Notes: generated by a model from the sequence alone, not told the origin. 64,000 nucleotides of DNA from Endomicrobiales bacterium (GCA_963796955.1 CAWCNJ010000008.1:256001-320000); one strand, 5' to 3'; counted from the first letter of the stretch, positions 32,781 to 64,000 are shown. Program-made: numbers and translations.

Positions 32781-32781
32781 C

Positions 32782-33753: not shown

Positions 33754-33860
33754 TTACGGGAACAACATTGTTCTTTTAGTGCTCTGGAGCGTTGGGCAGT
33801 GTCATATAAGTTTTTCTCGGACTCGAACGAGAATAGTTGTAACAGAGGCAGTTTTAAATA

Positions 33861-44177: not shown

Positions 44178-45296
44178 ATGCGTCTATCAGACATCCTTAA
44201 AAACACCGGTGGCAATCAAAAACCGGCCGTCCCACAGGCGGCGCCCGCGCCCGTCTCACCCTCAGCACAACAACCCGATTTCAGACCAACCCTGTCGCAA
44301 ATGCCCAAAGCAGAAGCCCCCAGTGTTACCTCCCAGGATAACATCCTTGCCGCCTCAAATGTGTATACTAAAGCCATCAGCGAAGCAAAAACCCTTATCA
44401 ACTCAATAAGTAACGACAGCACCACCACCGACCCGATCACCTGCACTGAGCAGATCGTAAAACTTCTTGAAAACTCGAATGATGACCTGGTGATCCTTGC
44501 CGACCGCGCAACGCCCGATGTTTATCTCTACGGCCATAGCGTGAATGTGTGCATCTATTCCACCATGATGGGCAAAGGCATGGGGATGGACCATGACAAA
44601 TTAGTGCGTCTGGCGAATGCCGCCTTTTTCCATGATGTATGCCTTTCAAAACATTTGATGCTTATAATGAAGAACGGAAAGCTTGCCCAGGAAGAGGTAA
44701 ACTCTGTCCATGCCATATCGCCGCAGTGCTCTAAACTTATAGAGACGGCTATTTCAACGTTCACGCCGCTGGTGAAAACAGCGATCCTTCAAGTAATGTA
44801 CTCAATGAACGAGCGCAAATACGGCAGCCGGGAGATACCCGCCGAGCTCAACGAGGAAAACACCGAGTTCGTAAAGCTCATAACCATTACCGATATTTAT
44901 GAAGCGCTGACGCATCCGAGGCCGTACCGCGACCGCTTTCTGCCGCACGACGCGATAAAAACGATGATCAGCACGGCAGAGAACAACTTTGATCCGGTGC
45001 TGTTGAAATCCTTTATCGAAATTATTTCCTTATATCCGCTGGGCAGCTACGTCCGCCTTAACACCGACGAGATAGCCCGCGTGACCGGCGTGAACCGGGG
45101 ACTGCCCACGCGCCCGAAGATCCTTATTATCACCGACCCGTCCGGTGCGCGCCAGCCGCAAGCCAAGTTCGCGGACCTTGCCGCCTCACCAATGCTGTTC
45201 GTCAAAGAGGCCCTCGACGAAACAAAGCTTAAGCTTGCCGATAAAAAACTCATGCTGGAGCTGAAAGCCATCCGCTGGTGGGTAAAATCACTCTAA
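44178..45296 (+). CDS. degenerate HD-GYP domain protein
   Basis: HSVNV, FFHDV, D.YEALT..RPYR and YPLGS.V.LNT tail; lacks HHE and GYP; Pro/Ala/Gln-rich N-terminus. Confidence 0.8.
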   Translation: MRLSDILKNTGGNQKPAVPQAAPAPVSPSAQQPDFRPTLSQMPKAEAPSVTSQDNILAASNVYTKAISEAKTLINSISNDSTTTDPITCTEQIVKLLENSNDDLVILADRATPDVYLYGHSVNVCIYSTMMGKGMGMDHDKLVRLANAAFFHDVCLSKHLMLIMKNGKLAQEEVNSVHAISPQCSKLIETAISTFTPLVKTAILQVMYSMNERKYGSREIPAELNEENTEFVKLITITDIYEALTHPRPYRDRFLPHDAIKTMISTAENNFDPVLLKSFIEIISLYPLGSYVRLNTDEIARVTGVNRGLPTRPKILIITDPSGARQPQAKFADLAASPMLFVKEALDETKLKLADKKLMLELKAIRWWVKSL

Positions 45297-46105
45297 TGCC
45301 GCGCATTGTCCTGAAGATCGGACCGATAGCAGTATCCATCCACACGAACGAACCCGCCTGGCACCCGCTGCTTAAAGAACGTTACAAAAGTTTTTTAATT
45401 AAAAAACCATTAAAGGCCATTGCCAGCATAGAGCTGAAGACAGCTGAAGAGCGTACCGGCAAACGACAGCTCACGGTAAAGAGTACCCTCGACGGTCACG
45501 AAATATCCCGAAACGATTTCCACTCAACCTCTGATATGTACTTCAAAAGAACAAGCCTTTCATGCCTTCCAAATGTTTACTCCTTTGATTCGTGGCTGAG
45601 GGTATTCATAACTGCCGCGTATAGCACCAGGGGTATGGTATTGGTGCACGGGGCCTCTACCGGTTTTCGCCGTAAGGCCTATCTGTTCGCGGGCGTATCG
45701 GGGCGGGGCAAATCGACCATCACACGGAAGCTCGGCATTGATGCCGCTTTGAGCGATGAACTGACCCTTTTGTCGACAAAGGGGAAGAAAGTTTTCGCCC
45801 ACAGCACACCCTTCTGGGGTGAATTAGCCCGGCCGGAAACTGCAGGGCCTGTCTCATTGCCGCTGGGCCGCATATACTATTTAAAACACGGTCCCAAACT
45901 CAGCGACCGGAGTTTAACGCCGGCAGGATCATTTGCATATTTTATGACGACCATACTATTTTTTTCGACCGATGCGGGATCCGTTAACGGCATGCTGGAT
46001 ACGGCAGTCAATATAATAAAACATACCGGGGCCGCCACCCTTGCTTTTTCACTCAAGACCGGGCGCGAACAGATATGCAGATTATTGGAGGAACGTCTCT
46101 CATGA
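45296..46105 (+). CDS. HprK-related P-loop kinase-like protein (RiPP-cluster type)
   Basis: LVHGA, LFAGVSGRGKST (Walker A), SDE, STPFWGE; TAATG coupling to the upstream gene. Confidence 0.75.
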   Translation: MPRIVLKIGPIAVSIHTNEPAWHPLLKERYKSFLIKKPLKAIASIELKTAEERTGKRQLTVKSTLDGHEISRNDFHSTSDMYFKRTSLSCLPNVYSFDSWLRVFITAAYSTRGMVLVHGASTGFRRKAYLFAGVSGRGKSTITRKLGIDAALSDELTLLSTKGKKVFAHSTPFWGELARPETAGPVSLPLGRIYYLKHGPKLSDRSLTPAGSFAYFMTTILFFSTDAGSVNGMLDTAVNIIKHTGAATLAFSLKTGREQICRLLEERLS

Positions 46106-46368
46106 CGAAAGAACACATGTACCGGATAAAACCGGGCCTTGCCTGGCGCGTGATAGGGGAAACGGCCTTCGTCTTCGACCCGGCGAGATCGGAACTCCAT
46201 GAATTAAGCGAGTCAGCCACCGTGATCTGGCAGAGCCTTGATAAAAACGGTTCCGCCAACACAGCCGCGAAACGAATTTCCGACGAGTTCGACGTAACTG
46301 TCGAACGGGCGCTCCGCGATACGGGAACGCTGTTGACGGATCTTCAGGCACTGGGATTGATAGAATAA
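46102..46368 (+). CDS. PqqD-family RiPP recognition element (RRE)
   Basis: 88 aa; WRVIGE..V.D......HEL.ESA..IWQ.LD, ...I.DEFDV..E.A.RD...LL..L...GLIE. Confidence 0.9.
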   Translation: MTKEHMYRIKPGLAWRVIGETAFVFDPARSELHELSESATVIWQSLDKNGSANTAAKRISDEFDVTVERALRDTGTLLTDLQALGLIE

Positions 46369-46369
46369 T

Positions 46370-47404
46370 ATGCCAAATGTCATGGACAAGCTGTTTGCGT
46401 ATACGCAGAGACAACGCATCCCGCTGATGTGCACCTTTGAACTGACCAAAAACTGTAACCTGCATTGCCGCCACTGCTATATCCCGCACAGAGAACGCAC
46501 GCAAAAAACGCTTTCCACCGCTCAGATCATGACTGCGCTCGACCAGCTGGCACGCATGGGAACGCTGTACCTGGTTTTCACCGGGGGCGAGATCTTTCTC
46601 AGGAAAGATCTGCCGGCTCTGTGCAGACATGCCCGGAAGCTGCATTTTGATATCCGCCTTTTTACGAACGGGACCCTGTTGACGCCTGCCATGGCGAAAC
46701 AACTTGCCCGGGTCGGCGTAAGCGCGGTAGAAATTAGCATATACGGAAAACCGGACACACACGATGCTATTACCGGTCACACAGGCTCTTGGAAAAGATC
46801 GATGGATTCGATCAAAACTCTGCAAAAGCACGGCCTTAAAGCGGTCATTAAAATGCCGCTGATGACTGAAAATTATGAAGATAAAAAATACATTGAAGCG
46901 CTTTCAAAAAAACTTAATGTTAAACTTCAACTAGACGCTGTTATAACAACAATGTCGGATGGAAACAAAACACCATTATCAATGCGGCTGTCTGGAAAAA
47001 CCCTTCAAAAAATATTTAGATCCCACGACAACGGAACAGCCCCGGATGCCGGCGAAACAGACCTGATATGTTCAGCAGGAAGGAATATGCTGGCAATAGC
47101 GGCGAATGGTGATCTGTTGCCATGTATTCAACTGCCGTTTAAGCTAGGAAATATAACAAAAAGAACGATCCCTGGTTTATGGAATAATAATAAGCTCCTC
47201 GTTAAAAAATTGTTATCTATCAAGGCCTCCGATATTGCCGAGTGCAAGGAATGCGCGATGGTCTCACAGTGCCAACGGTGTCCGGGAATGGCACTGGTTG
47301 AAGACGGCTCTCTGTCCGGGCCATCGACCGCGGCCTGTTTATTGACCAGGGCAAGATATGGCAGCAAAACACCAACTAATCTAAATATTAGATCACATTC
47401 ATGA
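46370..47404 (+). CDS. radical SAM/SPASM peptide maturase
   Basis: CNLHCRHC, FTGGE, TNGTL, SIYG....HD.ITG..GS; SPASM CSAG...I.ANGDLLPC and CKEC.....CQRCPG...C. Confidence 0.92.
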   Translation: MPNVMDKLFAYTQRQRIPLMCTFELTKNCNLHCRHCYIPHRERTQKTLSTAQIMTALDQLARMGTLYLVFTGGEIFLRKDLPALCRHARKLHFDIRLFTNGTLLTPAMAKQLARVGVSAVEISIYGKPDTHDAITGHTGSWKRSMDSIKTLQKHGLKAVIKMPLMTENYEDKKYIEALSKKLNVKLQLDAVITTMSDGNKTPLSMRLSGKTLQKIFRSHDNGTAPDAGETDLICSAGRNMLAIAANGDLLPCIQLPFKLGNITKRTIPGLWNNNKLLVKKLLSIKASDIAECKECAMVSQCQRCPGMALVEDGSLSGPSTAACLLTRARYGSKTPTNLNIRSHS

Positions 47405-47491
47405 TCCACCGACGATAACGGCGCCGCGACGAGAAGTGTAATCATTACACTTATGTACACACACCACAAGACCTATTCAACAACAAATTCA

Positions 47492-47520
47492 TTGATTATT
47501 CTTGAATATTTGACTATACT
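47492..47520 (+). promoter_or_regulatory. putative sigma70 promoter for the precursor peptide and giant protein
   Basis: TTGATT (47492-47497), 17 nt, TATACT (47515-47520) in an AT-rich spacer. Confidence 0.5.
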
Positions 47521-47570
47521 TATAGCGGAACAAGGCGAAACGTAGCTTTTGTATTTTTGAGGAGTTGTTC

Positions 47571-47720
47571 ATGACACTTAGAAAGAAGCGAAAACCTTAC
47601 CTCCCACCCAAAATTTCATCACAAAAAGTAATTGAGACCGCGGCTCTTGCCTGCGGTAAATGTATAGGCGGAAATCCAATATATCAGGCGGCTTGTAGAA
47701 GTTTTTCTAAGATGTCCTAA
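47571..47720 (+). CDS. putative RiPP precursor peptide, 49 aa (absent from the ORF track)
   Basis: GAGGAG RBS at 47559-47564; MTLRKKRKPYLPPKISSQKVIETAALACGKCIGGNPIYQAACRSFSKMS*; YxxP leader motif, three Cys. Confidence 0.85.
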   Translation: MTLRKKRKPYLPPKISSQKVIETAALACGKCIGGNPIYQAACRSFSKMS

Positions 47721-47743
47721 AAACGCAGTCCGGTACATCCTGC

Positions 47744-50700
47744 ATGAGCGACACGAAAGTATTCTTAGCGACCGGCGGATCCATGCGGCCCCTGTTTTCT
47801 TCGGGTGAGCCGGTCTGGGCTGTTCCTATATCGAATAGTGAGGCGCTGCGTCCAGGTGATATTGTTATATATACGCGCGCGCGCGCAAAGTTTATGCACC
47901 GCGTTCTGTCCGTATCCGGTGACACATGCACAGTATTCAGCGACTCAGCCGTCTGCCAGCCACACACCATATCGGTCAATTCTATAATCGCAAAACCAAT
48001 TAGCCGCATGCAGGGAACACACGGCCTCCTCTGGGGCCTGGCCTGTAACGCGTTCTATCAGGTCTCCCGTTTTCTTAAACACCGCGCCTCCAGAATTTTA
48101 TCGGTTGCCGCCGTCTTAACTATTGCCTACTGCCTATTGCCTCTTACTTCACAAGCATATACCCGCGTTAAAACCGTTGAATTCAATTTCGGCGGCTATT
48201 ACTCGGCCACAAACGTTGCCAGCTGGACGCCGCCCTACGTTACCATAAACCTGCCGGATGCTATCGCTTCATCTCCCATCAAGGACGCGGTGCTTGATAT
48301 TCAATACCAATCGATCCCTGCCGTCACAAACAAGGACAGTCCAACTACTGCTATCGACGTACTATTCTCAACAGGCAATGCCGCCGGTGGAGCAGCTATA
48401 GACGGCATTGGTACGGGCGTTACTATGCCCACAAGTTCCAGAAAGAACGACATTATGTGCCTGCGTTTTGATGCAACATCAAAAATGACGGCCTGGAGCA
48501 ATACGCCGTATAGCATGAAAATAACCCTTACGGGCAGTAACGGTATTTTGTACAACTTGTATTCAGCCAAGCTGTTCATCACTTACTACTATGATGATAC
48601 GGCAACAACACAGGTAAAAACCGTACACTTTCCGCTTTTTTCGACGTCCGCAGACGGCAAGTCCGGCGTGGCATCCTACCTTGCCCAAAGAGGCAACACA
48701 ACAAGCGCGCTTTATTACGATGCTGAAATACCGGAAATATCCTTCACGCGCAAGCAGGCATGGTTCGAGGTGCGCGGATATCGCCAATCCGGCGGTTCCG
48801 CGACTGACGGCACGATATACGCCAAGATCGGCGCAAATGCCAAACAGGGAACAACGACGCTTGACGGTTCTATGACTGGCTCCTACTGGATCAGGTACCT
48901 CACATCTACCGGAACACCTGCGGGTTTCGCTGAAAACACATACCAGACGCTTAACGTGGTAACCGCTACCAATGCCACCATGAATGTTCTTGGCGGTGAA
49001 CTGGTGGAGACCTACGAGTATAACGCCACAACATTCCCGCAGGAAAAAACTCTTAACTACTTCTTGTGCCAGTCTACCGGCGGCGCCAGCGACCCGGCGA
49101 ACTTCACGGTACCGCTGTATATTAACGAATCCACCGTCACAATAAAACGCATTTACGCCCTGATGTATGGTTCTTATAACAACACCGGCGCTGCCCTGAA
49201 CCTTACCGTGAACTCTAAGATCAAGGGCCAGGCCCTTACAGCGCGGACCTATTCGCTGGCAACAACGGTAACACAGGCGTCAGGCTTTGTGCTTTATCAC
49301 GACCTTACGCAGGGGGCAACCTGGTGGGTGAACGGCTCCTCAGTAACGTTGTCATGGAACGCTAACGCCAACCTTGGCGGTATCGGCGCTGAACTGATAG
49401 TAACTTACACCTACAACAACGACGACTCCTTTACAGACTCTTACAGGATCTGGGGCGGGGAAACCACTAACCAGGTCACGAACGGCACTTATTACAACTC
49501 GAATTTAAACCTGTACTTCCCTGATCCTGAAGTGCCAACCGGCAAGAAAACACTCAGGTCGGCATTTTTCAGATATAATTTTATTCAGGGCGATTCCGCG
49601 GTCACAGCCAACCCGCAAACGACGATCGGCGTCAACGGCTCTGTTCCCGACAGGCAGGTGGTTCAGCACTACGGCACCACAGAAAACTTCCACGCTGTCG
49701 CATTATATGATTTTACCAAAAACATAACACCTGCCAGCACAACTGTTGCCGGAAATTTTACTTTGTCGAACGATCCATTCAATACAGCGGGCATAGCGTC
49801 AGTCATTTACGAGTACAAGCCGGTGCCGGTCGCGCCTTCGGCTTTGACCCAATACCAAAATGATGACGTTACGATAATGCCCCTGGGCGATTGGGAAAAC
49901 CTGCAGGGAAAACATTTAAGATTTACATTTTCAAGTAAAATAACGGGCGATTCCTTATACCCTGTTGTAGAAGTTAAGCCGGCTGCCGGTTCCTTCGACG
50001 GCATTACGAACCTTTCGACCGGAACGGTTCAAACCTATAACGGCTCTTCTCTATCGGCTGATATTTTCATAAGCACGGGCCAGGGTGCGTATCAATGGCG
50101 CGCATCGGTTGTTGGGAGCGCCGGCCGCTCGGCATGGACAAATTTCGGAGCGCCCGGCACTACACACTTCGGCATAGACCTTTCTACACCGGCCATTCCA
50201 GTCCTCGCGACGCCATCAAGCGGAACCGCGACATCAGATCAAACACCAACGCTTACATGGAACGCCTTGACAGATACCGGCGGGTCAGGACTAAGCGGTT
50301 ACCTGCTTCAAATAGCTACTTCGACAAATTTTAACCCGGTGTTTTATAGCTCTATTACTGCAAACACCTCATTCACCTCTACCTTTACCTGGACGCAAGC
50401 ACCCTATTATTGGAGAACACGGTCCCAGGACGCGGCAGGCAACTTCAGCGCGTATTCAGACACTTGGACGATAATTATCGACTCGACGCCGCCGCTGCAG
50501 GTTACAACCTACTTGGCGCCAGCTAATCAGGCATTCAGCTCATCAACGATCCAGACATTCAGCTGGGCTTCCTCCACCGACACGCCGGCTGGGGTCCAAA
50601 ACTACATACTGCAACTTTCTACGGCCGCTGATTTTTCCGCTATTGCTTACTCGTCGGTAACAGTCTCGACCGGCGCAGTAATGAACATTACGCAATCATC

Positions 50701-53700
50701 ATATACGTGGCGCGTTAACGTGCAGGATTGGGCGAACAACTACACAACATCAACACTGAAATACAGCGTGGTGATAGATTCCTCGCCACCGCCTCCGGTA
50801 ACAACGATATCAACTCCGTCTGACGACTCTGCCTCCAATGTGCAGCTCCAAACTTTCAACTGGACAGGTGTTGTCTCATTACCCGCCCCAACCAAGGCGT
50901 ATTTTCTGCAGGTTTCAACGGCGCCGGATTTCTCGGTCATCAACTATTCATCAGCTACTGCAACAAATAGCGCGCAGTTGACACTTAATCAGTCATCCTA
51001 TACCTGGCGCGTGAATGTGCAGGATTACGCGTTGAATTACACGACGAGCCCGGCAGTCTTTCATGTGATCGTCGATACTACGCAACCGGCACAGGTGACA
51101 AATTATATTGCTCCGGGCAACCAGGTGTTCAGTTCAACTACATCCACTACGTTTTCCTGGTCGGCCTCCACCGACACGCCTGCCGGCATTAAAAATTACA
51201 TCCTTCAGCTGTCGACGGCACCGGATTTCAGCGGCACGATCATATCTTCAACGACGCCGGCCTTAAGCGCCCAGATGTCTCTGAGCCAGTCGTCTTATAC
51301 CTGGCGCGTAAACGCCCAGGACTGGGCTAACAACTACACAACCTCGACCTTAAAATACAGCGTCGTTATCGACTCATCACCTCCGCCGCAGATAACTACG
51401 TTATCTACGCCGTCGAACGGCCTGGCGACAAACACCCAGACACAGACCTTCAGCTGGGTGGGTGTGGCATCTTTCCCTGCGCCGATACAAAACTATATAC
51501 TGCAGCTGTCAACTGCGGCTAATTTTACGGGTACGATAATCTCATCTGTTACCGCTGCGACAAGCGCCGTGCTCACGCTTAACCAGTCGTCTTACACCTG
51601 GCGAGTTAACGTGCAGGACTACGCCCTGAATTACACTACCAGCGCAGCGACCTTCAACCTTGTTATCGACACAACACCGCCGCCGGCGGTTTCTACATTA
51701 CTGGGTCCTTCGCCGGACGGCCTTGCCTCAGCCACTACTACGCAGGTGTTCTCCTGGACGGGAGTGACGGATACGCCTGCGCTGGTTAAAAACTATATCG
51801 TTCAAGTTTCGACCGCGGGGGATTTCTCTAAGATCGCATATTCCTCAGTAACCGCGAACACCAGTGCCACGATCGCGCTTATCCAGTCTTCGTACACCTG
51901 GCGTGTGAATGTTCAGGATTATGCCTTGAATTACACAACCTCACCCTCCGTTTATCATATCGTTATAGATACGACGCCGCCACCGGCCGTATCCACGCTC
52001 AATGGCCCTGCTAACAATGTTCCAGTTAACAACCTTAACCAAACATTCTCCTGGACCGGCGTAACAGATCTTCCGTCGATGTTGAAGAATTACATAGTGC
52101 AGCTTTCGACTGCGTCTGATTTCTCCAAGATAGCCTACTCATCCGTAACCGCGCTCAACAACGCGACTATCAGCCTGAACCAATCCTCCTACACCTGGCG
52201 CGTAAATGTGCAGGACTATGCCCTGAACTACACCACTTCATCCGCCGTATTCTTTGTGCTGGTTGATACCACCCTGCCCGTTATTACGAATTTGCAGGCA
52301 GGGGACGCAACGTGGCGAAGCGCTCCTGGCAACACCTACAACGTCCAATTTGGCGACCAGGGCTTCGCTCAGTCAAAGCTTAATTCCATCCAGTACGAAG
52401 TTATCACCGCTACCGGCTTTACGGCTATCCCCTGGACTGACATAGCCGCGCCGCCCATCAACCAGCCGACATATGTAACGCCGTGGCAAGTGAACTTTAA
52501 CGCCCTGGTAGAGGCGGTTACTAATTTCGTCTCCATTCGCGCGACGGATTTGGCGGGCAATACGTCAACGTATACCAACGCCTTCTACGTGCTGAAAGAT
52601 GTGTCCGTGCCGAGTATCGTGGACAATCAATTCGGTGATACCATCTGGCGCAACGCCGCGGGCGCCACATATGACCTGGATTTCTTTGATAACGGCGGAT
52701 CGGGCATCGACCATGTAAATTACAGCGACACATACTATGTGAACAATACTCCCGGCGCCTCAGTCTTTACGAATCGCACACTCATATCGCAGGCAACCCT
52801 GAACGCGACCACTTCGTACATCACCACATGGCAGATACCCGATTTCAATCTGCTGTTGGAAGGGAAAAACTTTATCGGCGTTACCGTCTATGACCGTGCG
52901 GGCTTAAGCCAGACGCTGTCAAGCTATCCGGAACCTTTCTACATTTTAAAAGATACAACGGCGCCGACGATAATAAACGGGCAGGCCGGCGACAACACAT
53001 GGCGGCCAGCCAACACAGGTCAGTACAATGTTGACTTTCAGGATGCCTCAAGCGGTTCGGGCGTTGCGGGCTTTGATATGCTGGCTTCCACCGTCGCGGG
53101 AGGCACGCAATCCCTGTTAATACCCTGGACGCAGGTGCTCTCAACCAACACCTACCTCTATACACAGTCGTGGCCCATTCCAGACGCGGTATTTACCGCG
53201 CTTCGCTCAGGCCACGAGCCGAACCGCATATCGCTGCGCACCTACGATTTTGCAGCTAACACCTCTGCGGTAACAACAGATGCCTTTTATATCCTGAAAG
53301 ACACGATCCCACCGACCATGTCTAACAACCAGGCAGGAGATAACACCTGGCGGACACTGGGCGGCACAACGTACAACGTCGGCTTTGCCGATGCTGAATC
53401 GTGGGCTGCTGGAGCGCGCTACACCGTGCGCAACGGGCCGACGACCGGAGACACGGAATGGGCGCCCAGCTGGCAGCCGATCTTCTCTTCGACCGGAACA
53501 CCGTCCTATAACACGAACTGGCAGCTAGACTTTAATAGCTTATGGGGAGCCACTAACTATGTATTCGTTCAATACTGGGATGTGGCCGGAACAACAATAA
53601 CACCGACAACGCCTGTCTTCTATATTAAAAAAGACAATGTCGCTCCGACGGTACAGAACAATCAATCCGGAGATAACACGTGGCGCAATGCGCCGGGAAC

Positions 53701-56700: not shown

Positions 56701-59700
56701 GGCGTTGTCGCCCGCACCCTTCACCGGCCTTGCGCCTGAATACCTCTGGAACCTGCTGCATGAAGGCACCAACTACATCACTGTCCAAGCATACGATATG
56801 GCCTTGGATTCCAGCACTAAGCAGGATGCCTTCTTCGTCCTGAAGGACACCAACGGCCCAACGATCACCAACAACCAGTCAGGCGACAACACCTGGCGCA
56901 ATACGGTCGGTACTACCTATAACGTTGATTTCCAGGACTTGATATCAGGTACCACTGAAGCTGATTACATGATCAAAGACGGCTCCAATAATCAACTCCT
57001 CGGCTGGACCCCGGTTTTCACTAATTCGGGCGGGGTGGGAAGCTACACCACGGACTGGCCGATATCGGCCGGGGCCTTCACTGCACTGCCCGACGGTTCC
57101 ACCGGGTACGTTTACCTGCGCTCGTTCGATAAGGCCGGCAATGCAACCACGAATCTCACACCGTCCTTCTACATCCTGAAAGACACAGACACGCCGTTCA
57201 TCAACGTAGCCGCCCAGAAGTACTACATGTCCTCGCACGACTTCAGCCTTAAGAACTATGCTACCTTCTTTGACCCTAAGAATAGCTTTACACCCGGCGC
57301 TTCCGGTTTGAACGCTATCCAATACTTTATCTCCACCGGCACCGCCATGACAGGCACACCGGTGAAGAACTGGACAACCATACCAGGCCTAACGGTGGGA
57401 ACAACATGGTTTACAAATAACTGGCAAATAGACTTCGCTGCCCTGCCGGGCGCTGTTACCTGCTACGTATCTGTCTCAGCCGCCGATCTTGCCGGCAACA
57501 CCTCAACCTTCGTTGATGCCTTCAGGGTCTTTAAGTCCACTATAGCCGCACCGGTGATTACCGATAACCAGACCGGCGATTACACCTGGTATACCTCTTC
57601 AAATTCATTTACCGCCAAGCAATATGACGTCGATTTCCAATCCTTCGATAACGACTACATTTCATCCGTTACCGTTCAAGCTTGGAGCGGCCTTGCACAA
57701 AGCGGCTCTAAATATGTTGACTGGACCGCCGTTGTTTCTACCGGCACCGTATTGTCTTATACCCAGAACTGGGCGTTGTCGCCCGCACCCTTCACCGGCC
57801 TTGCGCCTGAATACCTCTGGAACCTGCTGCATGAAGGCACCAATTACATCACCGTCCAGGCATACGATATGGCCTTGGATTCCACCACGAAACAAGATGC
57901 CTTCTTCGTCTTGAAAGATACCAACGGCCCAACGATCACCAACAACCAGTCAGGCGACAACACCTGGCGCAACGCGGTCGGCACTGTTTACAACGTCGAT
58001 TTCCAAGACCTGATATCGGGCACGACCGAGGCTGATTATCTTATTAAAGACGGTTCAGGCAACCAGCTCTTCGGCTGGACACCGGTATTCACTAATGCCG
58101 GCGGTGTGGGAAGCTACACCACGGACTGGCCGATATCGGCCGGCGCCTTCGCCGCCCTGCCTGACGGCTCGACAGGATATGTGTACCTGCGCTCGTTCGA
58201 TAAGGCCGGCAATGTTACCACCAACGCCTTGCCTTCCTTCTACATACTTAAGGACACTGATGTACCGACCGTTCAAGTAAATGGTCAAACATTTTTCCAG
58301 GGCGCCTACCAATTCGGCGCAATACACGACGTGGATTTCTTTGACCCGAAAAACAGCAACACACCGGGGGCATCTGGCCTTAGTTCTATCCAATACTTCA
58401 TTTCCACCGGGCCTGCCATGACAGGAACGGTCATGAAGAATTGGACGTCTATCCCTGGCTTAGTAACAGGCAGCACGTTTTACACAACAAACTGGGCAAT
58501 AGATTACACCGCTCTAACGCAGCTGGTCACCGGATACGTATCGGTACAAGCGGTCGACCAGGCAGGCAATACTACAACGTACCTGGACGCCTTCCGGGTA
58601 TTAAAAACCACCGCGACCGCACCCTTGATATCCAATAACCAGACAGGGGATTTCAAATGGTATGGCTCATCAACAGCCATGCTTTCATCAACCTACAATA
58701 TGAGCTTCCAGTCGATAGCGGGCCCCGCTGTATATATCTCGTCGGTTTCTGTTCAGATATACAGCAAACCCGGAAGTTCAGGCACAAAACTGGTGGATTG
58801 GACAACCGTTGTTTCCACAGGCAATGTATTAACATATTCTGTCCCGTGGCAGTTGAAACCGTCAACATGGACAACCCAGCCCGATTATTTCTGGAATTTG
58901 ATGCAAGAAGGTACAAACTATATTTCTGTACAGGTGCTGGACATCAATGCGGATTCTGCAACGGCAACAGATGCATTTTTTATTCGAAAAGACACAACAA
59001 CTCCCGGCATTATAAACAATCAAACAGGCGACAACGTCTGGCGCAACACAGCTGCGGCGGTATACGACGTCGATATAAATGACCTTACGTCAGGAACCAC
59101 TGAGGCTGATTACAAAATAATGGACGCTTCCAAAGTCACTACATTGGTTGACTGGACCCCGTTCTTAACCAACCCCACAGGCGTTAAATCGCAAACCGCG
59201 AATTGGGGAATAAACCCTGCTGATTTTGCCCAGCTACCAAGCGGCGCCACAAGCTATGTTTATGTTCGGGCCTTCGACCTGGCAGGCAATACCACGCAGC
59301 CTATCAACGCACAGTTTTATATTCTGAAGGACACAAATGTACCGACAGTGTCGGTAAACGCTTCAAACTACTACCTCTCGTCGCGTGACTTTGGAACTCA
59401 GAACTATGCCGGTTTCTATGACCCGCTGGTACAGGGCAGAACACCTGGCGCGTCAGGGTTGAACGCTATCCAATACTTTATCTCTACCGGCACCGCGATG
59501 ACCGGCACGCCGGTTAAGAACTGGACGGCAATACCCGGCTTAACGGTGGGGACAACGTGGTTCACTAATAACTGGCAGATCGATTTCGCCTCCCTGCCAG
59601 GCGCGGTGACCTGCTACGTTTCGCTTTCCGCCGCTGACCTTGCAGGCAACACCTCAACTTTTGTTGACGCCTTCAGGGTCTTTAAGTCCACTATAGCCGC

Positions 59701-61606
59701 ACCGGTGATCACCGACAACCAATCTGGCGATTACACCTGGTACACCTCTTCAAATTCATTTACCGCCAAGCAATATGACGTCGATTTCCAATCCTTCGAC
59801 AACGACTACATTTCATCCGTTACCGTCCAAGCCTGGAGCGGCCTTGCACAAAGCGGCTCTAAATATGTTGACTGGACCGCCGTTGTTTCTACCGGCACCG
59901 TATTATCTTACACCCAGAACTGGGCGTTGTCGCCCGCGCCCTTCACCGGCCTTGCGCCGGAATATATCTGGAACCTGCTGCATGAAGGCACCAACTACAT
60001 CACTGTCCAAGCATACGATATGGCCTTGGATTCCAGCACTAAGCAGGATGCCTTCTTTGTCCTGAAAGACACCAACGGCCCAACGATCACCAACAACCAG
60101 TCAGGCGACAATACCTGGCGCAACGTCGTCGGCACTGTGTATAACGTCGATTTCCAGGACTTGATATCGGGCACGACCGAGGCGGATTATCTTATTAAAG
60201 ACGGTTCAGGCAACCAGCTCTTCGGCTGGACCCCGGTATTCACTAATGCCGGCGGTGTGGGAAGCTACACCACGGACTGGCCGATATCGGCCGGGGCCTT
60301 CACTGCACTGCCCGACGGTTCCACCGGGTACGTCTACCTGCGCTCGTTCGATAAGGCCGGCAATGCTACCACGAATCTCACACCATCCTTCTACATCCTG
60401 AAAGACACAGACACGCCGTTCATCAACGTAGCCGCCCAGAAGTACTACATGTCCTCGCACGACTTCAGCCTTAAGAACTATGCTACCTTCTTTGACCCGA
60501 AGAATAGCTTTACACCCGGCGTTTCCGGTTTGAACGCTATCCAATACTTTATCTCTACCGGCACCGCGATGACCGGCACGCCGGTTAAGAACTGGACGGC
60601 TATCCCCGGCTTAACGGTGGGGACAACATGGTTCACTAATAACTGGCAGATCGATTTCGCCTCCCTGCCGGGCGCAGTGACCTGCTACGTTTCGCTTTCC
60701 GCAGCTGACCTTGCAGGCAACACCTCAACTTTTGTTGACGCCTTCAGGGTCTTTAAGTCCACTATAGCCGCACCGGTGATTACCGATAACCAGACCGGCG
60801 ATTACACCTGGTACACCTCTTCAAATTCATTTACCGCCAAGCAATATGACGTTGATCTCCAGTCCTTCGATAACGACTACATTTCATCCGTTACCGTCCA
60901 AGCCTGGAGCGGCCTTGCCCAAAGCGGCTCTAAATATGTTGACTGGACCGCCGTTGTTTCTACCGGCACCGTATTATCTTACACCCAGAACTGGGCGTTG
61001 TCGCCCGCACCCTTCACCGGCCTTGCGCCTGAATACATCTGGAACCTGCTGCATGAAGGCACCAACTACATCACTGTCCAAGCATACGATATGGCCCTGG
61101 ATTCCAGCACTAAACAGGATGCCTTCTTTGTCCTGAAAGACACCAACGGCCCAACGATCACCAACAACCAGTCAGGCGACAACACCTGGCGCAATACGTT
61201 CGGCACAACCTACAATGTTGATTTCCAAGACTTAATATCGGGCACGACCGAGGCGGATTATCTTATTAAAGACGGTTCAGGCAACCAGCTCTTCGGCTGG
61301 ACCCCGGTATTCACTAATTCGGGCGGCGTGGGAAGCTACACCACAGACTGGCCGATATCGGCTGGCGCCTTCGCCGCCCTGCCCGACGGTTCCACCGGGT
61401 ACGTCTACCTGCGCTCGTTCGACAAGGCCGGCAATGCTACCACAAATCTCACACCATCATTCTTTATCTTGAAAGATACCGATGCACCAACGGTAACGGT
61501 CGCGGCGCTAAATACTACATGTCATCGCATGATCTGGGACTTAAGAACTACACGAACTTCTATGATCCGCTGGTCGCCGGAAGGTCCCCGGGTGCTTCCG
61601 GCCTGA
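47744..61606 (+). CDS. giant repeat surface protein with N-terminal S24/S26-like peptidase domain and internal signal peptide (reading frame shifts near 61509)
   Basis: 4620-aa ORF; GGSMRP...GDIVIY...HRV; hydrophobic segment ending SQA at aa 138; Fn3/Ig-like repeats. Confidence 0.9.
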   Translation: MSDTKVFLATGGSMRPLFSSGEPVWAVPISNSEALRPGDIVIYTRARAKFMHRVLSVSGDTCTVFSDSAVCQPHTISVNSIIAKPISRMQGTHGLLWGLACNAFYQVSRFLKHRASRILSVAAVLTIAYCLLPLTSQAYTRVKTVEFNFGGYYSATNVASWTPPYVTINLPDAIASSPIKDAVLDIQYQSIPAVTNKDSPTTAIDVLFSTGNAAGGAAIDGIGTGVTMPTSSRKNDIMCLRFDATSKMTAWSNTPYSMKITLTGSNGILYNLYSAKLFITYYYDDTATTQVKTVHFPLFSTSADGKSGVASYLAQRGNTTSALYYDAEIPEISFTRKQAWFEVRGYRQSGGSATDGTIYAKIGANAKQGTTTLDGSMTGSYWIRYLTSTGTPAGFAENTYQTLNVVTATNATMNVLGGELVETYEYNATTFPQEKTLNYFLCQSTGGASDPANFTVPLYINESTVTIKRIYALMYGSYNNTGAALNLTVNSKIKGQALTARTYSLATTVTQASGFVLYHDLTQGATWWVNGSSVTLSWNANANLGGIGAELIVTYTYNNDDSFTDSYRIWGGETTNQVTNGTYYNSNLNLYFPDPEVPTGKKTLRSAFFRYNFIQGDSAVTANPQTTIGVNGSVPDRQVVQHYGTTENFHAVALYDFTKNITPASTTVAGNFTLSNDPFNTAGIASVIYEYKPVPVAPSALTQYQNDDVTIMPLGDWENLQGKHLRFTFSSKITGDSLYPVVEVKPAAGSFDGITNLSTGTVQTYNGSSLSADIFISTGQGAYQWRASVVGSAGRSAWTNFGAPGTTHFGIDLSTPAIPVLATPSSGTATSDQTPTLTWNALTDTGGSGLSGYLLQIATSTNFNPVFYSSITANTSFTSTFTWTQAPYYWRTRSQDAAGNFSAYSDTWTIIIDSTPPLQVTTYLAPANQAFSSSTIQTFSWASSTDTPAGVQNYILQLSTAADFSAIAYSSVTVSTGAVMNITQSSYTWRVNVQDWANNYTTSTLKYSVVIDSSPPPPVTTISTPSDDSASNVQLQTFNWTGVVSLPAPTKAYFLQVSTAPDFSVINYSSATATNSAQLTLNQSSYTWRVNVQDYALNYTTSPAVFHVIVDTTQPAQVTNYIAPGNQVFSSTTSTTFSWSASTDTPAGIKNYILQLSTAPDFSGTIISSTTPALSAQMSLSQSSYTWRVNAQDWANNYTTSTLKYSVVIDSSPPPQITTLSTPSNGLATNTQTQTFSWVGVASFPAPIQNYILQLSTAANFTGTIISSVTAATSAVLTLNQSSYTWRVNVQDYALNYTTSAATFNLVIDTTPPPAVSTLLGPSPDGLASATTTQVFSWTGVTDTPALVKNYIVQVSTAGDFSKIAYSSVTANTSATIALIQSSYTWRVNVQDYALNYTTSPSVYHIVIDTTPPPAVSTLNGPANNVPVNNLNQTFSWTGVTDLPSMLKNYIVQLSTASDFSKIAYSSVTALNNATISLNQSSYTWRVNVQDYALNYTTSSAVFFVLVDTTLPVITNLQAGDATWRSAPGNTYNVQFGDQGFAQSKLNSIQYEVITATGFTAIPWTDIAAPPINQPTYVTPWQVNFNALVEAVTNFVSIRATDLAGNTSTYTNAFYVLKDVSVPSIVDNQFGDTIWRNAAGATYDLDFFDNGGSGIDHVNYSDTYYVNNTPGASVFTNRTLISQATLNATTSYITTWQIPDFNLLLEGKNFIGVTVYDRAGLSQTLSSYPEPFYILKDTTAPTIINGQAGDNTWRPANTGQYNVDFQDASSGSGVAGFDMLASTVAGGTQSLLIPWTQVLSTNTYLYTQSWPIPDAVFTALRSGHEPNRISLRTYDFAANTSAVTTDAFYILKDTIPPTMSNNQAGDNTWRTLGGTTYNVGFADAESWAAGARYTVRNGPTTGDTEWAPSWQPIFSSTGTPSYNTNWQLDFNSLWGATNYVFVQYWDVAGTTITPTTPVFYIKKDNVAPTVQNNQSGDNTWRNAPGTAYDVDFQDSISGVSQADYMVKDAVGNTVIPWTNIFTNPAGQASYTTNWALSVATFTALLDGASNFVYVRDYDVAGNLTAPVNPQFYILKDTDLPTVQLGAQRYFMSSHDLGLQNYPDFFDPKNSRTPGASGLASIQYYISTGTAMTGTAVENWTSIAGLTPGTTWFTNQWSVNFAPLPGATTCYVSVQATDLAGNTTIFMDAFRVFKSTIPAPVITDNQTGDYTWYTSSNSFTTKQYDVDFRSFDNDNISSVTVQSWSGLAQTGSKYVDWTAVVSTGTVLSYTQNWTLTPAPFTGFAPEYIWNLLHEGTNYITVQAYDMALDSSTKQDAFFVLKDTNGPTITNNQSGDLTWRNAVGTTYNVDFQDLISGTTEADYLIKDGSGNQLLGWTPVFTNSGGVGSYTTDWPISAGAFTALPDGSTGYVYLRSFDKAGNATTNLTPSFYILKDTDTPFINVAAQKYYMSSHDFSLKNYAGFFDPKNSYTPGASGLNTIQYFISTGTAMTGTPVKNWTTIPGLTVGTTWFTNNWQIDFASLPGAVTCYVSLSAADLAGNTSTFVDAFRVFKSTIAAPVITDNQTGDYTWYTSSNSFTAKQYDVDFQSFDNDYISSVTVQAWSGLAQSGSKYVDWTAVVSTGTVLSYTQNWALSPAPFTGLAPEYLWNLLHEGTNYITVQAYDMALDSTTKQDAFFVLKDTNGPTITNNQSGDNTWRNTVGTTYNVDFQDLISGTTEADYMIKDGSNNQLLGWTPVFTNAGGVGSYTTDWPISAGAFTALPDGSTGYVYLRSFDKAGNATTNLTPSFYILKDTDTPFINVAAQKYYMSSHDFSLKNYATFFDPKNSFTPGASGLNAIQYFISTGTAMTGTPVKNWTTIPGLTVGTTWFTNNWQIDFAALPGAVTCYVSVSAADLAGNTSTFVDAFRVFKSTIAAPVITDNQSGDYTWYTSSNSFTAKQYDVDFQSFDNDYISSVTVQAWSGLAQSGSKYVDWTAVVSTGTVLSYTQNWALSPAPFTGLAPEYLWNLLHEGTNYITVQAYDMALDSSTKQDAFFVLKDTNGPTITNNQSGDNTWRNTVGTTYNVDFQDLISGTTEADYMIKDGSNNQLLGWTPVFTNSGGVGSYTTDWPISAGAFTALPDGSTGYVYLRSFDKAGNATTNLTPSFYILKDTDTPFINVAAQKYYMSSHDFSLKNYATFFDPKNSFTPGASGLNAIQYFISTGTAMTGTPVKNWTTIPGLTVGTTWFTNNWQIDFAALPGAVTCYVSVSAADLAGNTSTFVDAFRVFKSTIAAPVITDNQTGDYTWYTSSNSFTAKQYDVDFQSFDNDYISSVTVQAWSGLAQSGSKYVDWTAVVSTGTVLSYTQNWALSPAPFTGLAPEYLWNLLHEGTNYITVQAYDMALDSTTKQDAFFVLKDTNGPTITNNQSGDNTWRNAVGTVYNVDFQDLISGTTEADYLIKDGSGNQLFGWTPVFTNAGGVGSYTTDWPISAGAFAALPDGSTGYVYLRSFDKAGNVTTNALPSFYILKDTDVPTVQVNGQTFFQGAYQFGAIHDVDFFDPKNSNTPGASGLSSIQYFISTGPAMTGTVMKNWTSIPGLVTGSTFYTTNWAIDYTALTQLVTGYVSVQAVDQAGNTTTYLDAFRVLKTTATAPLISNNQTGDFKWYGSSTAMLSSTYNMSFQSIAGPAVYISSVSVQIYSKPGSSGTKLVDWTTVVSTGNVLTYSVPWQLKPSTWTTQPDYFWNLMQEGTNYISVQVLDINADSATATDAFFIRKDTTTPGIINNQTGDNVWRNTAAAVYDVDINDLTSGTTEADYKIMDASKVTTLVDWTPFLTNPTGVKSQTANWGINPADFAQLPSGATSYVYVRAFDLAGNTTQPINAQFYILKDTNVPTVSVNASNYYLSSRDFGTQNYAGFYDPLVQGRTPGASGLNAIQYFISTGTAMTGTPVKNWTAIPGLTVGTTWFTNNWQIDFASLPGAVTCYVSLSAADLAGNTSTFVDAFRVFKSTIAAPVITDNQSGDYTWYTSSNSFTAKQYDVDFQSFDNDYISSVTVQAWSGLAQSGSKYVDWTAVVSTGTVLSYTQNWALSPAPFTGLAPEYIWNLLHEGTNYITVQAYDMALDSSTKQDAFFVLKDTNGPTITNNQSGDNTWRNVVGTVYNVDFQDLISGTTEADYLIKDGSGNQLFGWTPVFTNAGGVGSYTTDWPISAGAFTALPDGSTGYVYLRSFDKAGNATTNLTPSFYILKDTDTPFINVAAQKYYMSSHDFSLKNYATFFDPKNSFTPGVSGLNAIQYFISTGTAMTGTPVKNWTAIPGLTVGTTWFTNNWQIDFASLPGAVTCYVSLSAADLAGNTSTFVDAFRVFKSTIAAPVITDNQTGDYTWYTSSNSFTAKQYDVDLQSFDNDYISSVTVQAWSGLAQSGSKYVDWTAVVSTGTVLSYTQNWALSPAPFTGLAPEYIWNLLHEGTNYITVQAYDMALDSSTKQDAFFVLKDTNGPTITNNQSGDNTWRNTFGTTYNVDFQDLISGTTEADYLIKDGSGNQLFGWTPVFTNSGGVGSYTTDWPISAGAFAALPDGSTGYVYLRSFDKAGNATTNLTPSFFILKDTDAPTVTVAALNTTCHRMIWDLRTTRTSMIRWSPEGPRVLPA
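50176..52264 (+). repeat. seven ~99-aa fibronectin-III-like repeats
   Basis: Consensus D.TPP...TFSW....D.P....NYILQ.ST..DFS...SS.T......L.QSSYTWRVNVQD.A.NYTTS. Confidence 0.85.
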
Positions 61607-63290
61607 ACTCTATCCAGTACTACATTTCCACCGCGACCGCGATGTCCGGTTCTATCCCTGTCAAAAATTGGACAGCTATCCCCGGCTTAACGCTGGGAAC
61701 AACGTGGTACACCTCCAACTGGCAAATTGATTTCGCTTCACTGCCCGGTGCGGTAACGTGTTATGTTTCAGTTCAGGCTGCCGACCTTGCCGGAAACACT
61801 TCAACCTACGTTGACGCCTTCAGGGTTTTCAAATCCACAATTGCCGCACCAGCAATAACCAACAACCAGACCGGCGATTATACGTGGTATATTTCTTCGA
61901 ACGTATTCACAACCAAACAATATGATGTTGATTTCCAATCCCTTGATAATGACTATATCTCCTCTGTAACCGTTCAAGCCTGGAGCGGTCTCGCGCAGTC
62001 TGGTTCTAAATATGTGACTGGACCGCTGTTGTTTCTACCGGCACAGTATTGTCTTATACCCAGAACTGGGCGTTGACGCCCGCACCCTTCACCGGCCTTG
62101 CGCCGGAATATATCTGGAACCTGCTGCATGAAGGCACCAACTACATCACCGTTCAGTCCTTTGATATGGCCCTGGATTCCAGCACTAAACAGGATGCCTT
62201 CTTTGTCCTGAAAGACACCAACGGCCCAACGATCACCAGCAACCAGTCAGGCGACAACACCTGGCGCAACGCGGTCGGCACTGTTTACAACGTCGATTTT
62301 CAGGACTTGATATCGGGCACGACCGAGGCGGATTATCTTATTAAAGACGGTTCAGGCAACCAGCTCTTCGGCTGGACCCCGGTATTCACTAATGCCGGCG
62401 GTGTGGGAAGCTACACCACGGACTGGCCGATATCGGGCGGCGCCTTTAACGCACTGCCTGATGGTTCCACCGGGTACGTTTACCTGCGCTCGTTCGATAA
62501 AGCCGGCAATGTTACCATGAACCTCACACCATCCTTCTTTATCTTAAAAGATACTGACACCCCTACGGTAACGGTCGCGGCGCAGAAATACTACATGTCA
62601 TCGCGCGACTTTGGCGCACGGAACTATACGAATTTCTATGACCCGCTGGTACCGGGACAATCACCCGGCGCTTCCGGCTTGAACGCTATCCAGTACTACA
62701 TTTCCACCGCGACCGCGATGTCCGGTTCTATTCCTGTCAAAAACTGGACGGCTATCCCCGGTTTGGCGGTTGGAACAACGTGGTTTACTTCCAACTGGCA
62801 AATTGATTTCGCTTCACTACCGGGAGCAGTTACCTGCTACGTCTCTGTCTCTGCTGCCGACCTTGCAGGTAACACTTCTACGTATGTTGATGCTTTCAGG
62901 ATCTTTAGATCGACCGTTCTTGCGCCGGCCATTGTGATCAATGAAGCAGCAGATTACAACTGGTACGGGGCCTCTACACCATTTGTTTCAAGGCTCCACG
63001 ACATCGATTTTGATTCCTTTGATAACGATTTTATTTCAACGGTTACCGCGAGCGCCTACAGTCTGCCGTCGCTTGGCGGCACGCAGCGCTTTGCCGACAC
63101 CATCATAATCGCCACCGGCACCGTCTATGCCTATACGGCGAACTGGCCGCTGACGCCGGTGGTAAGCGCGGCACCGGAATATCTGTGGAACCTGCTGGCC
63201 GAAGGGACTAATTACATTTCTCTGCAGGCGTATGATATCATGAATGATTCAACACCTGCTGTCGACGCCTTCAGGGTGTTTAAAGACACG
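53640..63290 (+). repeat. about nine tandem ~1071-bp (357-aa, three-domain) units
   Basis: Equivalent positions at 54411, 55482, 56553, 57624, (one diverged unit), 59775, 60846, 61922 and 62998. Confidence 0.92.
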
Positions 63291-64000
63291 ACACCGCCGG
63301 TGATCTCAAACCTGATGGCCGGCGGCGACAACACCTGGCGCAACAGCAACAGCGCGACCTACAACGTCGGTTTAAGGGACATCCTCTCAGGCCTTGGCAG
63401 TGCGGACTATATCATACATGCCAATTCCTACACAGGAACGCTGCTACAGGATTGGAGTTCGATAAACACCATAACCATCGGATCAACATTATACAATGGC
63501 GCGCCATGGAGCATTTCAGCGGCCGCATGGAACGCGATACCTGAAGGAACGACGGCGTACGTATCAGTAAGGGTTTTTGACCGCGCGAGTGTCGGCGCAA
63601 GCCAGGATTGTTTCTATATTTTGAAAGATACCACCCCGCCGACCGTGCCGGTGACGACGGCGCCAGCAACAAATGCGATCCTTGCCTCCGCCAATGTGAA
63701 CTTCTCATGGAACGGATCGACCGACACCGTAAGCCATGTTGATCATTACGATATCGTTGCCGCTACATCCAGCGACTTTGGAAATATCCGCTACAGCGCC
63801 ACCGTACCTGCTAACGCAGCATCGGCTCTCTTAAGCGAAAGTACCTGGTATTGGAAGGTGCGCTCAGCGGACACCGCCGGCAATGCTTCCGCTTACTCAA
63901 CCGCGGTTTCGTTCACCGTCAGCACCAGCGCGCCTTCAGGGCCACTGCTCAGCGCGCCGCTCAACGGCGCAACGACCAACGTCATGCTGATCAATTACCG
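61510..64000 (+). CDS. continuation of the giant protein after two -1 frameshifts; open to the window end
   Basis: Repeat sequence continues in a new frame at 61510-62015, then from 62016 with no stop to 64000 (read codon by codon); returns to Fn3-like units near 63630. Confidence 0.85.

Follow-up and report, generated by a model that had tools for sequence, protein, structure and literature searches.

A conserved peptide-maturation cassette beside giant surface-protein genes in Elusimicrobiota and its likeness to the linear polyphosphorylated peptide pathway

What do genes of the kind that modify a small peptide do directly in front of a gene for a giant surface protein, and why is a peptidase domain part of that protein? 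The question is raised by a 64,000-nt stretch of DNA from an Endomicrobiales bacterium (GCA_963796955.1, CAWCNJ010000008.1:256001-320000), which was analyzed as a whole and is called the window here; positions are counted from its first nucleotide, and the features described from 44178 on lie on the plus strand. From 44178 to the window end, genes for an HD-GYP-family protein, an HprK-like protein, a PqqD-type recognition element (RRE) of RiPPs (peptides made by ribosomes and modified after translation), a radical SAM/SPASM enzyme and a 49-aa peptide with three Cys are followed by a giant open reading frame (ORF) that begins with an S26-like peptidase domain. We observed that this cassette is conserved across the phylum Elusimicrobiota. 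The reading that we favor, and regard as fairly probable from sequence comparison, is that it is an Elusimicrobiota relative of the linear polyphosphorylated peptide (LPP) pathway, to which a radical SAM/SPASM enzyme has been added and whose leader peptidase has been captured by the N-terminus of the giant protein.

Conservation of the cassette and its known relatives

The cassette was compared across 401 genomes sampled from Elusimicrobiota, representing 123 genera. The kinase-like gene was found in 79 genomes and 46 genera, the weakest matches covering only the P-loop half and possibly being paralogues. Approximately 20 kb around 60 kinase-like genes was mapped with seven hidden Markov models (HMMs) built from the window proteins; after eight rows were dropped (seven loci fetched twice and one 3.7-kb fragment), 64 distinct loci remained. 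Kinase-like, PqqD, radical SAM, peptide and S26 genes occurred together in 51 of these 64 loci. The RiPP-type cassette proposed in a preliminary description of this DNA is supported, and its precursor recurs. The peptide gene always stood directly before the S26 gene, which in most relatives was a separate gene of 105-160 aa. Two gene orders were observed. Type A, to which the window belongs, runs HD, kinase-like, PqqD, radical SAM, peptide and S26 (the HD-headed set was present in 27/64 loci); type B runs kinase-like, PqqD, peptide, S26 and radical SAM, mostly with 4-nt overlaps. A scan of metagenome contigs with the peptide returned 115 relatives, some of them on contigs identical to those of metagenome-assembled genomes (MAGs); 80 were kept, and the S26 gene was next after the peptide gene in 78. 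In a separate scan, the named loci came from Elusimicrobiota MAGs, except for one "Patescibacteria group" fragment and one unclassified bacterium. The unclassified MAG, outside the phylum (L017:9813-13401), has a distant variant with kinase-like, PqqD and radical SAM genes and a different, 53-aa Cys-rich peptide ending in Ser, followed by a stand-alone S26 protein (145 aa, GDN motif) and then by a methyltransferase, with no giant gene.

The core of the cassette resembles a pathway that is already published. In LPP clusters of Bacillota, according to the passages of the report on which we draw here (Popov et al., Nat Commun 2026, PMC13381572), the leader peptidase LppS, which is SipW-like (catalytic residues S29, H68 and D93), a discrete RRE and an HprK-like kinase act on precursors with the leader logo YxxPxVLxHQxIxFETxxS; the leader is cut after T in an RRE-dependent manner, and LppK adds several phosphates to core Ser3. 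The cores are variable (35-200 aa), and the clusters sit in capsule loci and are called restricted to Bacillota. Within the limits of those passages, the likeness extends to the archaeal-type (SipW-like) Ser/His/Asp S26 peptidase (with 39 residues from Ser to His both in LppS and between S13 and H52 here), to the discrete PqqD-type RRE, to the HprK-like kinase and to a leader with YxxP and F-E-T. It also extends to the co-location of S26 and RRE genes (PqqD lies three genes upstream here, and the pairing recurs in 51/64 loci) and to a position in surface loci, that is, capsule loci in LPP and giant-protein and pilin-like loci here. The label of a new system was thus overstated, since the S26 peptidase, RRE, kinase and YxxP...FET core had been described as LPP in May 2026 (PMC13381572).

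Several features set the present loci apart from LPP as portrayed in those passages. A radical SAM/SPASM enzyme is present here, whereas the terms "radical SAM," "SPASM" and "Elusimicrobi" are absent from the text of PMC13381572. The NTP transferase and the MsbA-like exporter of LPP are not in the conserved set, defined as families common to at least 8 loci. The core is short, Cys-rich and highly conserved and lacks Ser at position 3; the spacing from YxxP to FET is two residues shorter than in the published logo; the host phylum is Elusimicrobiota, not Bacillota; and in one order the peptidase is fused to a giant protein.

Other known systems share parts of the set. Paeninodin-type lasso clusters also have an HprK-like tailoring kinase and phosphorylated peptides (PMC5067487), and their split B1 RRE recognizes [Y/W]xxP (PMC5067487, PMC13381572; both as far as the passages used here go). 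Unlike them, the present cassette has an S26 leader peptidase and a radical SAM enzyme instead of a lasso cyclase and a B2 cysteine protease; neither a lasso cyclase nor a dedicated exporter was among the conserved genes, as the preliminary description had said of the window. Sactipeptide and ranthipeptide systems (SkfB, PapB) are matched in the radical SAM CxxxCxxC motif with SPASM, the RRE and the Cys-bearing precursor, all of which were found here; the differences are a discrete rather than N-terminally fused RRE, the kinase and S26 genes in the set, and scores below every curated family model. The same kinds of protein (HprK-like, PqqD and radical SAM/SPASM) make up the SynChlorMet and HPr-rel-A systems that had been cited as a match, but all scores fell under the curated cut-offs (score/cut-off: ScmC, 23.6/125; ScmD, 17.9/100; ScmE, 112.9/400; HprK_rel_A, 19.4/200; PqqD_rel_X, 32.4/35). 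A literature search returned no paper combining HPr kinase, PqqD, radical SAM and peptidase and none on SynChlorMet; for RiPP, radical SAM, signal peptidase and HprK, only the LPP paper was relevant among the matches listed.

The precursor peptide and its putative enzymes

The cassette of the window is tightly packed. The HD-GYP-family gene (372 aa, 44178..45296; Pfam HD_5, 7.7e-10) and the gene for the HprK-like P-loop protein (269 aa, 45296..46105), a putative peptide Ser kinase by fold and sub-threshold NCBIfam matches, share TAATG at 45294-45298; the latter shares ATGA at 46102-46105 with the PqqD-type RRE gene (88 aa, 46102..46368; Pfam PqqD, 4.8e-12), and a 1-nt gap at 46369 separates this from the radical SAM/SPASM maturase gene (344 aa, 46370..47404; Pfam Radical_SAM, 1.6e-28; SPASM, 3.4e-9). 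The precursor gene (47571..47720), recognized from its ORF, its Shine-Dalgarno sequence and the homologue alignment, starts with ATG at 47571, with the ribosome-binding site GAGGAG 6 nt upstream, and ends 23 nt before the ATG of the giant ORF (47744). All positions and junctions of the gene series given in the preliminary description (TAATG, ATGA and 1 nt) were reproduced, as was its 49-aa peptide, with three Cys, 23 nt before the giant ORF.

The peptide combines a basic N-terminus, a YxxP leader motif, [FI]ET, AALAC, CGKC, a third Cys and a C-terminal Ser. In 44 aligned homologues from across the phylum, Y10, P13, E22, L26, C28, K30, C31, P36, C42 and S49 were invariant, and mean column identity was 57%, in comparison with 30-47% for the enzymes. 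The C-terminal Ser was present in 53/53 genome-derived and 80/80 metagenome-derived peptides, always seven residues after the third Cys, and is the only invariant hydroxyl residue of the core. For this reason, and because the kinases of paeninodin-type lasso clusters reportedly phosphorylate a C-terminal Ser (Zhu et al., 2016), we take the terminal Ser as the target of the HprK-like protein; this putative assignment carries the target over from the lasso peptide kinases. A predicted complex of PqqD, the peptide and S26 residues 1-100 scored 0.02, which speaks neither for nor against binding.

By analogy with LPP, the leader is most likely cut after T of [FI]-E-T. Of the 79 metagenome peptides that could be parsed (80 loci), 65 have FET as this motif, 8 have FEQ, 5 have IET and 1 has LET. 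Among 112 distinct peptide-peptidase pairs, all 13 leaders in which Q or H replaces T were paired with a peptidase that has a Cys nucleophile, and seven Cys-type peptidases were paired with a leader that keeps T; the pairing is a weak lead for the E-T site and probably reflects one clade. A cut after A-L-A, before the first Cys, is the alternative, ranked below E-T in view of the LPP data. A lipobox reading of A-L-A-C, as in lipoproteins, was rejected, as the leader carries many charges and lacks a hydrophobic core.

The radical SAM enzyme has CxxxCxxC and a SPASM domain, and no NCBIfam equivalog model reached its cut-off. Its best sequence match in the PDB was the thioether-forming SkfB (1.1e-21, versus 7.5e-7 for PqqE). 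With SkfB as the nearest solved relative and three invariant Cys in the core, our best guess is that this step most likely forms thioether crosslinks on the Cys core. PqqD scored 32.4 bits against NCBIfam PqqD_rel_X (cut-off, 35) and matched lasso_PqqD_Strm at 2.3e-7.

The kinase-like protein gave weak NCBIfam matches to ScmC, HprK_rel_A and HprK_rel_B (E = 3e-5 to 5e-4, far under the cut-offs). In 29 homologues, the Walker A motif GxSGxGKS, a DE pair and a TPFWGE motif were all invariant. HprK belongs to the PEPCK/HprK fold class, and the model of the window protein (predicted local distance difference test [pLDDT], 94.4) has this fold; ATP-dependent PEPCK was the first Foldseek match and HprK/P came next. 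The HprK-like kinase of the preliminary description is thus upheld by the modeled fold, with HMM matches that are weak and below threshold.

The HD protein, whose top sequence matches in the PDB were the HD-GYP enzymes 5z7c and 4mcw, keeps the H and HD motifs. Its HHE...GYP stretch is degenerate in the window copy, as had been described, whereas most of 27 orthologues keep the motif and read HER-DGSGYP at this place. This protein may act on the peptide as a phosphohydrolase or provide a link to cyclic dinucleotides and, heading the operon, might couple the peptide to cyclic-dinucleotide control of adhesion. Farther upstream, the window encodes a GGDEF cyclase (16258-17139) and a PAS-PAS-HD-GYP protein whose HD_5 domain is intact (19572-20984; 1.3e-39), so the genome has cyclic-di-GMP signaling apart from the HD protein of the cassette. 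The unit was taken to begin at the HD gene because what lies 5' of it encodes housekeeping functions, namely an Opp transporter, a CCA-adding enzyme, a PAS-domain protein, Mfd and two SurA-like isomerases. A pair of neighboring M16 (insulinase-type) peptidase genes directly 5' of the Opp operon (28550-31173 and 31170-36258, respectively) lie outside the conserved cassette.

The first 90 residues of the giant ORF (47744..48013) constitute, by profile, model and Foldseek, an S26 peptidase domain of the Sec11/SipW type, in keeping with the S24/S26-like start described before. A profile of 39 homologues matched human SEC11C (1.2e-8) and SEC11A (1.9e-8) in the PDB over the GxSMxP, GD, HR[IV] and Asp regions; the model (pLDDT, 91.6) matched SpsB and LexA in Foldseek. 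The putative catalytic residues are S13, H52 and D67. Among the 39 homologues, the nucleophile was Ser in 32 and Cys in 7, with His in 39/39 and Asp in 37/39.

The N-terminal membrane anchor that puts the catalytic domain of Sec11/SipW-type S26 peptidases outside the cytoplasm was not found in this domain, there being no hydrophobic segment before Ser13 on the Kyte-Doolittle scale. A long helix follows (residues 91-131 in the model), with the only hydrophobic segment at residues 118-136 (helix and segment, 48014..48184; Kyte-Doolittle maximum, 2.02), flanked by basic residues on its N-side and SQA on its C-side. The segment precedes the conserved mature N-terminus R-[IV]-K-T-V-E, just before which the ordinary AxA-type signal peptide of stand-alone giant homologues ends; by its position, it is a predicted signal-anchor or signal peptide of the giant protein. 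With no membrane segment ahead of it, the peptidase domain should face the cytoplasm, in front of the signal peptide of the giant protein. The stand-alone S26 homologues, as we read their sequences, end in a charged helix that is not membrane-like.

Peptidase-containing ABC transporters, in which a C39 domain is fused to bacteriocin exporters, offer a parallel: a cytoplasmic leader-peptidase domain stands N-terminal to a membrane-inserted protein. The partner here differs, being the signal peptide of a giant exported protein and not a transporter. The protein search with the S26 profile, confined to lengths of no more than 2,000 aa, returned 40 short proteins and, at longer lengths, one ABC-B fusion. 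This metagenomic protein of 745 aa (P0089) has an S26-like domain (residues 20-109; hhalign probability, 97.7) N-terminal to an ABC-B exporter and is the S26 counterpart of the peptidase-containing bacteriocin transporters.

The giant gene and its link to the cassette

The giant ORF, as assembled, comprises 4,620 codons and stops at 61606. Comparison with paralogous repeat copies revealed two 1-nt deletions in the window, after 61508 and after 62014, and the gene continues in two other frames (61509..64000) past the window end. On the contig, it ends at window-equivalent 84777, approximately 21 kb beyond the window; on the way there are an in-frame TGA at 69465-69467 and, near 77750, a third frame break, and the total comes to approximately 12,300 codons. 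The earlier figure of more than 5,400 aa hence does not correspond to the assembled ORF, because reading to the window end crosses the two deletions. Giant genes of relatives have unbroken frames of 8,800-10,600 aa.

Downstream of the hydrophobic segment, a conserved N-terminal module that we call GiantN (48185..49843, to residue 700) was 34-52% identical in related loci; it had no match in Pfam, and the ESM Atlas gave nothing above 0.80. The repeat body up to the first frame break (49844..61606), with a weak Big_13 match, consists of Ig-like and fn3-like units. Over the whole body, Ig-like, fn3 and lamin-tail domains were found, with Big_3_3 and Ig_Rha78A_N matches within 61509..64000 and Glucodextran_B, fn3 and LTD matches beyond the window. 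Tandem Repeats Finder detected no arrays of period ≤500 in the giant gene, the repeats being longer, protein-level units. Directly after the giant gene (L006:787-4869, window-equivalent 84787-88869) lie genes for a PQQ-like beta-propeller protein, which carries a Por_Secre_tail sorting domain, and for an outer-membrane protein of the UPF0164/FadL type.

In-frame fusion of S26 and GiantN was observed at seven loci, all in the order of the window (the window, L007, L008, L009, L011, L054 and L012, the last with a frame break). In two genomes of the same order, the S26 and giant genes are kept apart by stop codons and 6-11 nt. As S26 is separate in most relatives, the fusion is a lineage-specific state; the protease in cis noted in the preliminary description therefore holds for the window and six related loci, and does not hold for most relatives, in which it is a stand-alone gene. 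In another Elusimicrobiota family (L056:12932-15571), S26 is joined to another kind of exported protein, which has BNR/Sortilin repeats and, at its C-terminus, a FlgD_ig-type domain; this points to a second, independent fusion to an exported protein.

Adjacency was common. In 37/51 cassettes, the 3.5 kb downstream held, on the same strand, a GiantN module or an ORF of 700 aa or more, against the possibility, named beforehand as refuting, that homologous cassettes would never adjoin large exported proteins. The 14 remaining cassettes comprised 7 with <1.6 kb of sequence to inspect, the L056 locus, and 6 with at least 4.8 kb. One genome (G071) has a split cassette, with HD, kinase-like, PqqD and radical SAM genes on one contig and peptide, S26 and GiantN on another (L058, L108). 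On the latter contig, these genes sit behind genes for a GAF-HD-GYP-PilZ protein and for an M28 peptidase that bears a Por_Secre_tail domain.

Co-occurrence across genomes followed the same pattern. A search with residues 1-700 of the giant protein gave matches in 45 of the 401 genomes, 36 over GiantN and 9 over the S26 part only, and all 45, including 36/36 GiantN genomes, fell within the 79 genomes with the kinase-like gene. This nesting was maintained in families where both were rare (1/11 in family f19 and 2/9 in family f25). In the other GiantN genomes (n = 35), GiantN lay within approximately 11 kb of the kinase-like gene in 23, and cassette genes were directly upstream in 5 more. A second giant N-terminus, searched in the same 401 genomes, matched 63, mostly through generic fn3 repeats; this search was uninformative because the 15 genomes with near-full-length matches belong mainly to family f24, where the cassette is already common. 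In type B loci, the genes upstream (e.g., L078:2952-9531 and L083:6004-6438) encode a family 2 glycosyltransferase and two prepilin-type N-methylation (N_methyl) proteins, one of which, in one locus, has 835 aa with CarboxypepD_reg and LTD domains; with these pilin-like proteins and the glycosyltransferase in type B, both types have a cell-surface neighborhood.

The link to the cell surface is well supported by comparative genomics, and any mechanism behind it would be hypothetical. Taken together, the recurring adjacency, the two independent fusions and the genome-wide co-occurrence indicate a joint action of the peptide and giant surface proteins.

Proposed pathway, rival explanations and meaning

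The pathway that we propose would run as follows. Judging from homology and conservation, the PqqD protein would bind the YxxP motif in the leader of the 49-aa precursor; the radical SAM/SPASM enzyme would then modify the three-Cys core, most likely by thioether crosslinks; the HprK-like protein would phosphorylate the invariant C-terminal Ser; and the S26 Ser/His domain would remove the leader, most likely after T of [FI]-E-T. In the lineage of the window, the stop codon between the S26 gene and the next gene would have been lost, so that S26 is translated as the N-terminus of an approximately 12,000-aa Ig/fn3-repeat surface protein, before its signal peptide. Such a fusion would tie the removal of the leader both to the membrane and to the production of the giant protein. 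A further step, which we put forward tentatively and consider rather unlikely as it stands, is that the peptide, once crosslinked and phosphorylated, serves giant surface proteins as a dedicated accessory, which their own peptidase domain would mature at the membrane and which would be needed for their export, anchoring or function.

A number of observations weigh against this scheme. On the side of the chemistry, the kinase assignment consists of a fold and sub-threshold HMM matches; position 3 of the core, three residues after E-T (A-A-L-A-C), is Leu, in contrast to the Ser3 phosphorylated by LppK; the cleavage site is ambiguous, the A-L-A that precedes Cys obeying the classical -3/-1 rule and being as conserved as E-T; and no exporter was found in the conserved set, the only ABC genes being parts of an Opp-type importer 4-6 kb upstream. 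On the side of the giant proteins, the gene has three frame breaks and one stop in this assembly, no large ORF follows the six cassettes for which 4.8 kb or more could be inspected downstream, and for 7 of the 35 GiantN genes the 2.3-7 kb retrieved upstream held no cassette gene. Giants with two unrelated N-termini have nearly identical peptides beside them, which argues against a specific fit of peptide and GiantN, and in 20 type B loci an Rrf2-family regulator gene separates the cassette from the giant gene, which likewise speaks against a specific partnership. Giant genes are, moreover, common neighbors here: over all contigs of the 2.1-Mb genome (G000), 26 open frames, each 1,700 aa or longer (longest, 8,846 aa), account for approximately 96,000 codons, or approximately 14% of bases. 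The counts of cassettes and giants are not independent because the genomes are related.

Some of these observations would follow if the linkage were incidental. The product would then be free-standing (a signal, a CxxC...C metal binder or an antimicrobial) and encoded in an island of surface genes, and the fusion would be a neutral loss of a stop codon with normal signal-peptide cleavage afterward. Such a reading would accommodate the peptidase being a separate gene in most loci, the separate transcription unit suggested by the Rrf2-family gene of type B, the same type of peptide beside two unrelated giant families, the abundance of giant genes in the genome, and the locus outside the phylum (L017) that has the cassette, a stand-alone S26 and a methyltransferase with no giant gene. 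It does not sit well with two independent fusions to exported proteins, with peptide, S26 and GiantN remaining together even where the enzymes are elsewhere (G071), with the 36/36 nesting of GiantN in kinase-bearing genomes, f19 and f25 included, or with a peptide conservation (57% mean column identity) far above that usual for antimicrobial cores. We consider incidental linkage possible and on the unlikely side.

Another explanation would make S26 mainly a dedicated, SipW-like processor of the giant protein, with the small peptide as a second substrate or a regulator. In Bacillus, SipW processes TasA and TapA, and sipW is in an operon with the matrix proteins. The S26B-type catalytic domain here and its gene beside surface or matrix protein genes recall this arrangement and that of Sec11. 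The S26 gene was always beside or fused with an exported protein gene, where one was present; the domain has SipW-type homology, and the LPP report, in the passages used here, names SipW (PMC13381572). In contrast to SipW and Sec11, the domain here has no N-terminal anchor and is predicted to be cytoplasmic, and the leader of its presumed substrate has no hydrophobic core. Placed on the cytoplasmic side of the only hydrophobic segment, it could not reach a signal-peptide cleavage site across the membrane. The charged, non-membrane-like helix at the end of the stand-alone homologues, the ordinary AxA-type signal-peptide ends of the giant proteins, and the RRE-dependent cut of a cytoplasmic leader by the LPP homologue, as described in those passages (PMC13381572), also argue against dedicated processing, which we regard as improbable.

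A small cofactor-like molecule used inside the cell, as PQQ is made from PqqA and mycofactocin from MftA, is the least probable product of all and very hard to credit: the radical SAM/SPASM, PqqD, peptidase and very conserved short peptide do follow PQQ/mycofactocin logic, the radical SAM enzyme matches the PqqE and mycofactocin-maturase models of NCBIfam at 1e-26 to 1e-29 (under the cut-offs), and the conserved set includes no exporter, but the core lacks the Glu/Tyr or Val-Tyr ends of the PqqA and MftA precursors, the conserved set contains neither PqqB/C-like nor MftD/E/F-like genes, SkfB and not PqqE is the enzyme's nearest solved relative, and the kinase and the linkage to surface proteins would be left unexplained.

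For the biology of these peptides, the finding that we favor, a relative of the LPP pathway with a radical SAM/SPASM step, would have the following meaning. S26-type leader peptidases entered RiPP biology in 2026 and, in the passages of the report used here, as confined to Bacillota (PMC13381572); the present loci suggest that the core of recognition, cutting and kinase is widespread in a distant, mostly uncultured phylum, that this LPP-like core can occur together with a radical SAM/SPASM enzyme whose substrate would be a highly conserved Cys core, and that it is tied to giant surface proteins by fusion, adjacency and co-occurrence. The capsule loci of Bacillota and the giant-protein loci described here together point to a class of modified peptides that serves the cell envelope. 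They offer a testable handle on what LPP-like peptides do and a small, defined substrate for finding the chemistry of an unassigned radical SAM/SPASM clade. If the accessory role tentatively proposed above is true, a ribosomal modified peptide would be an assembly or structural factor of the cell envelope rather than an antibiotic, a signal or a cofactor.

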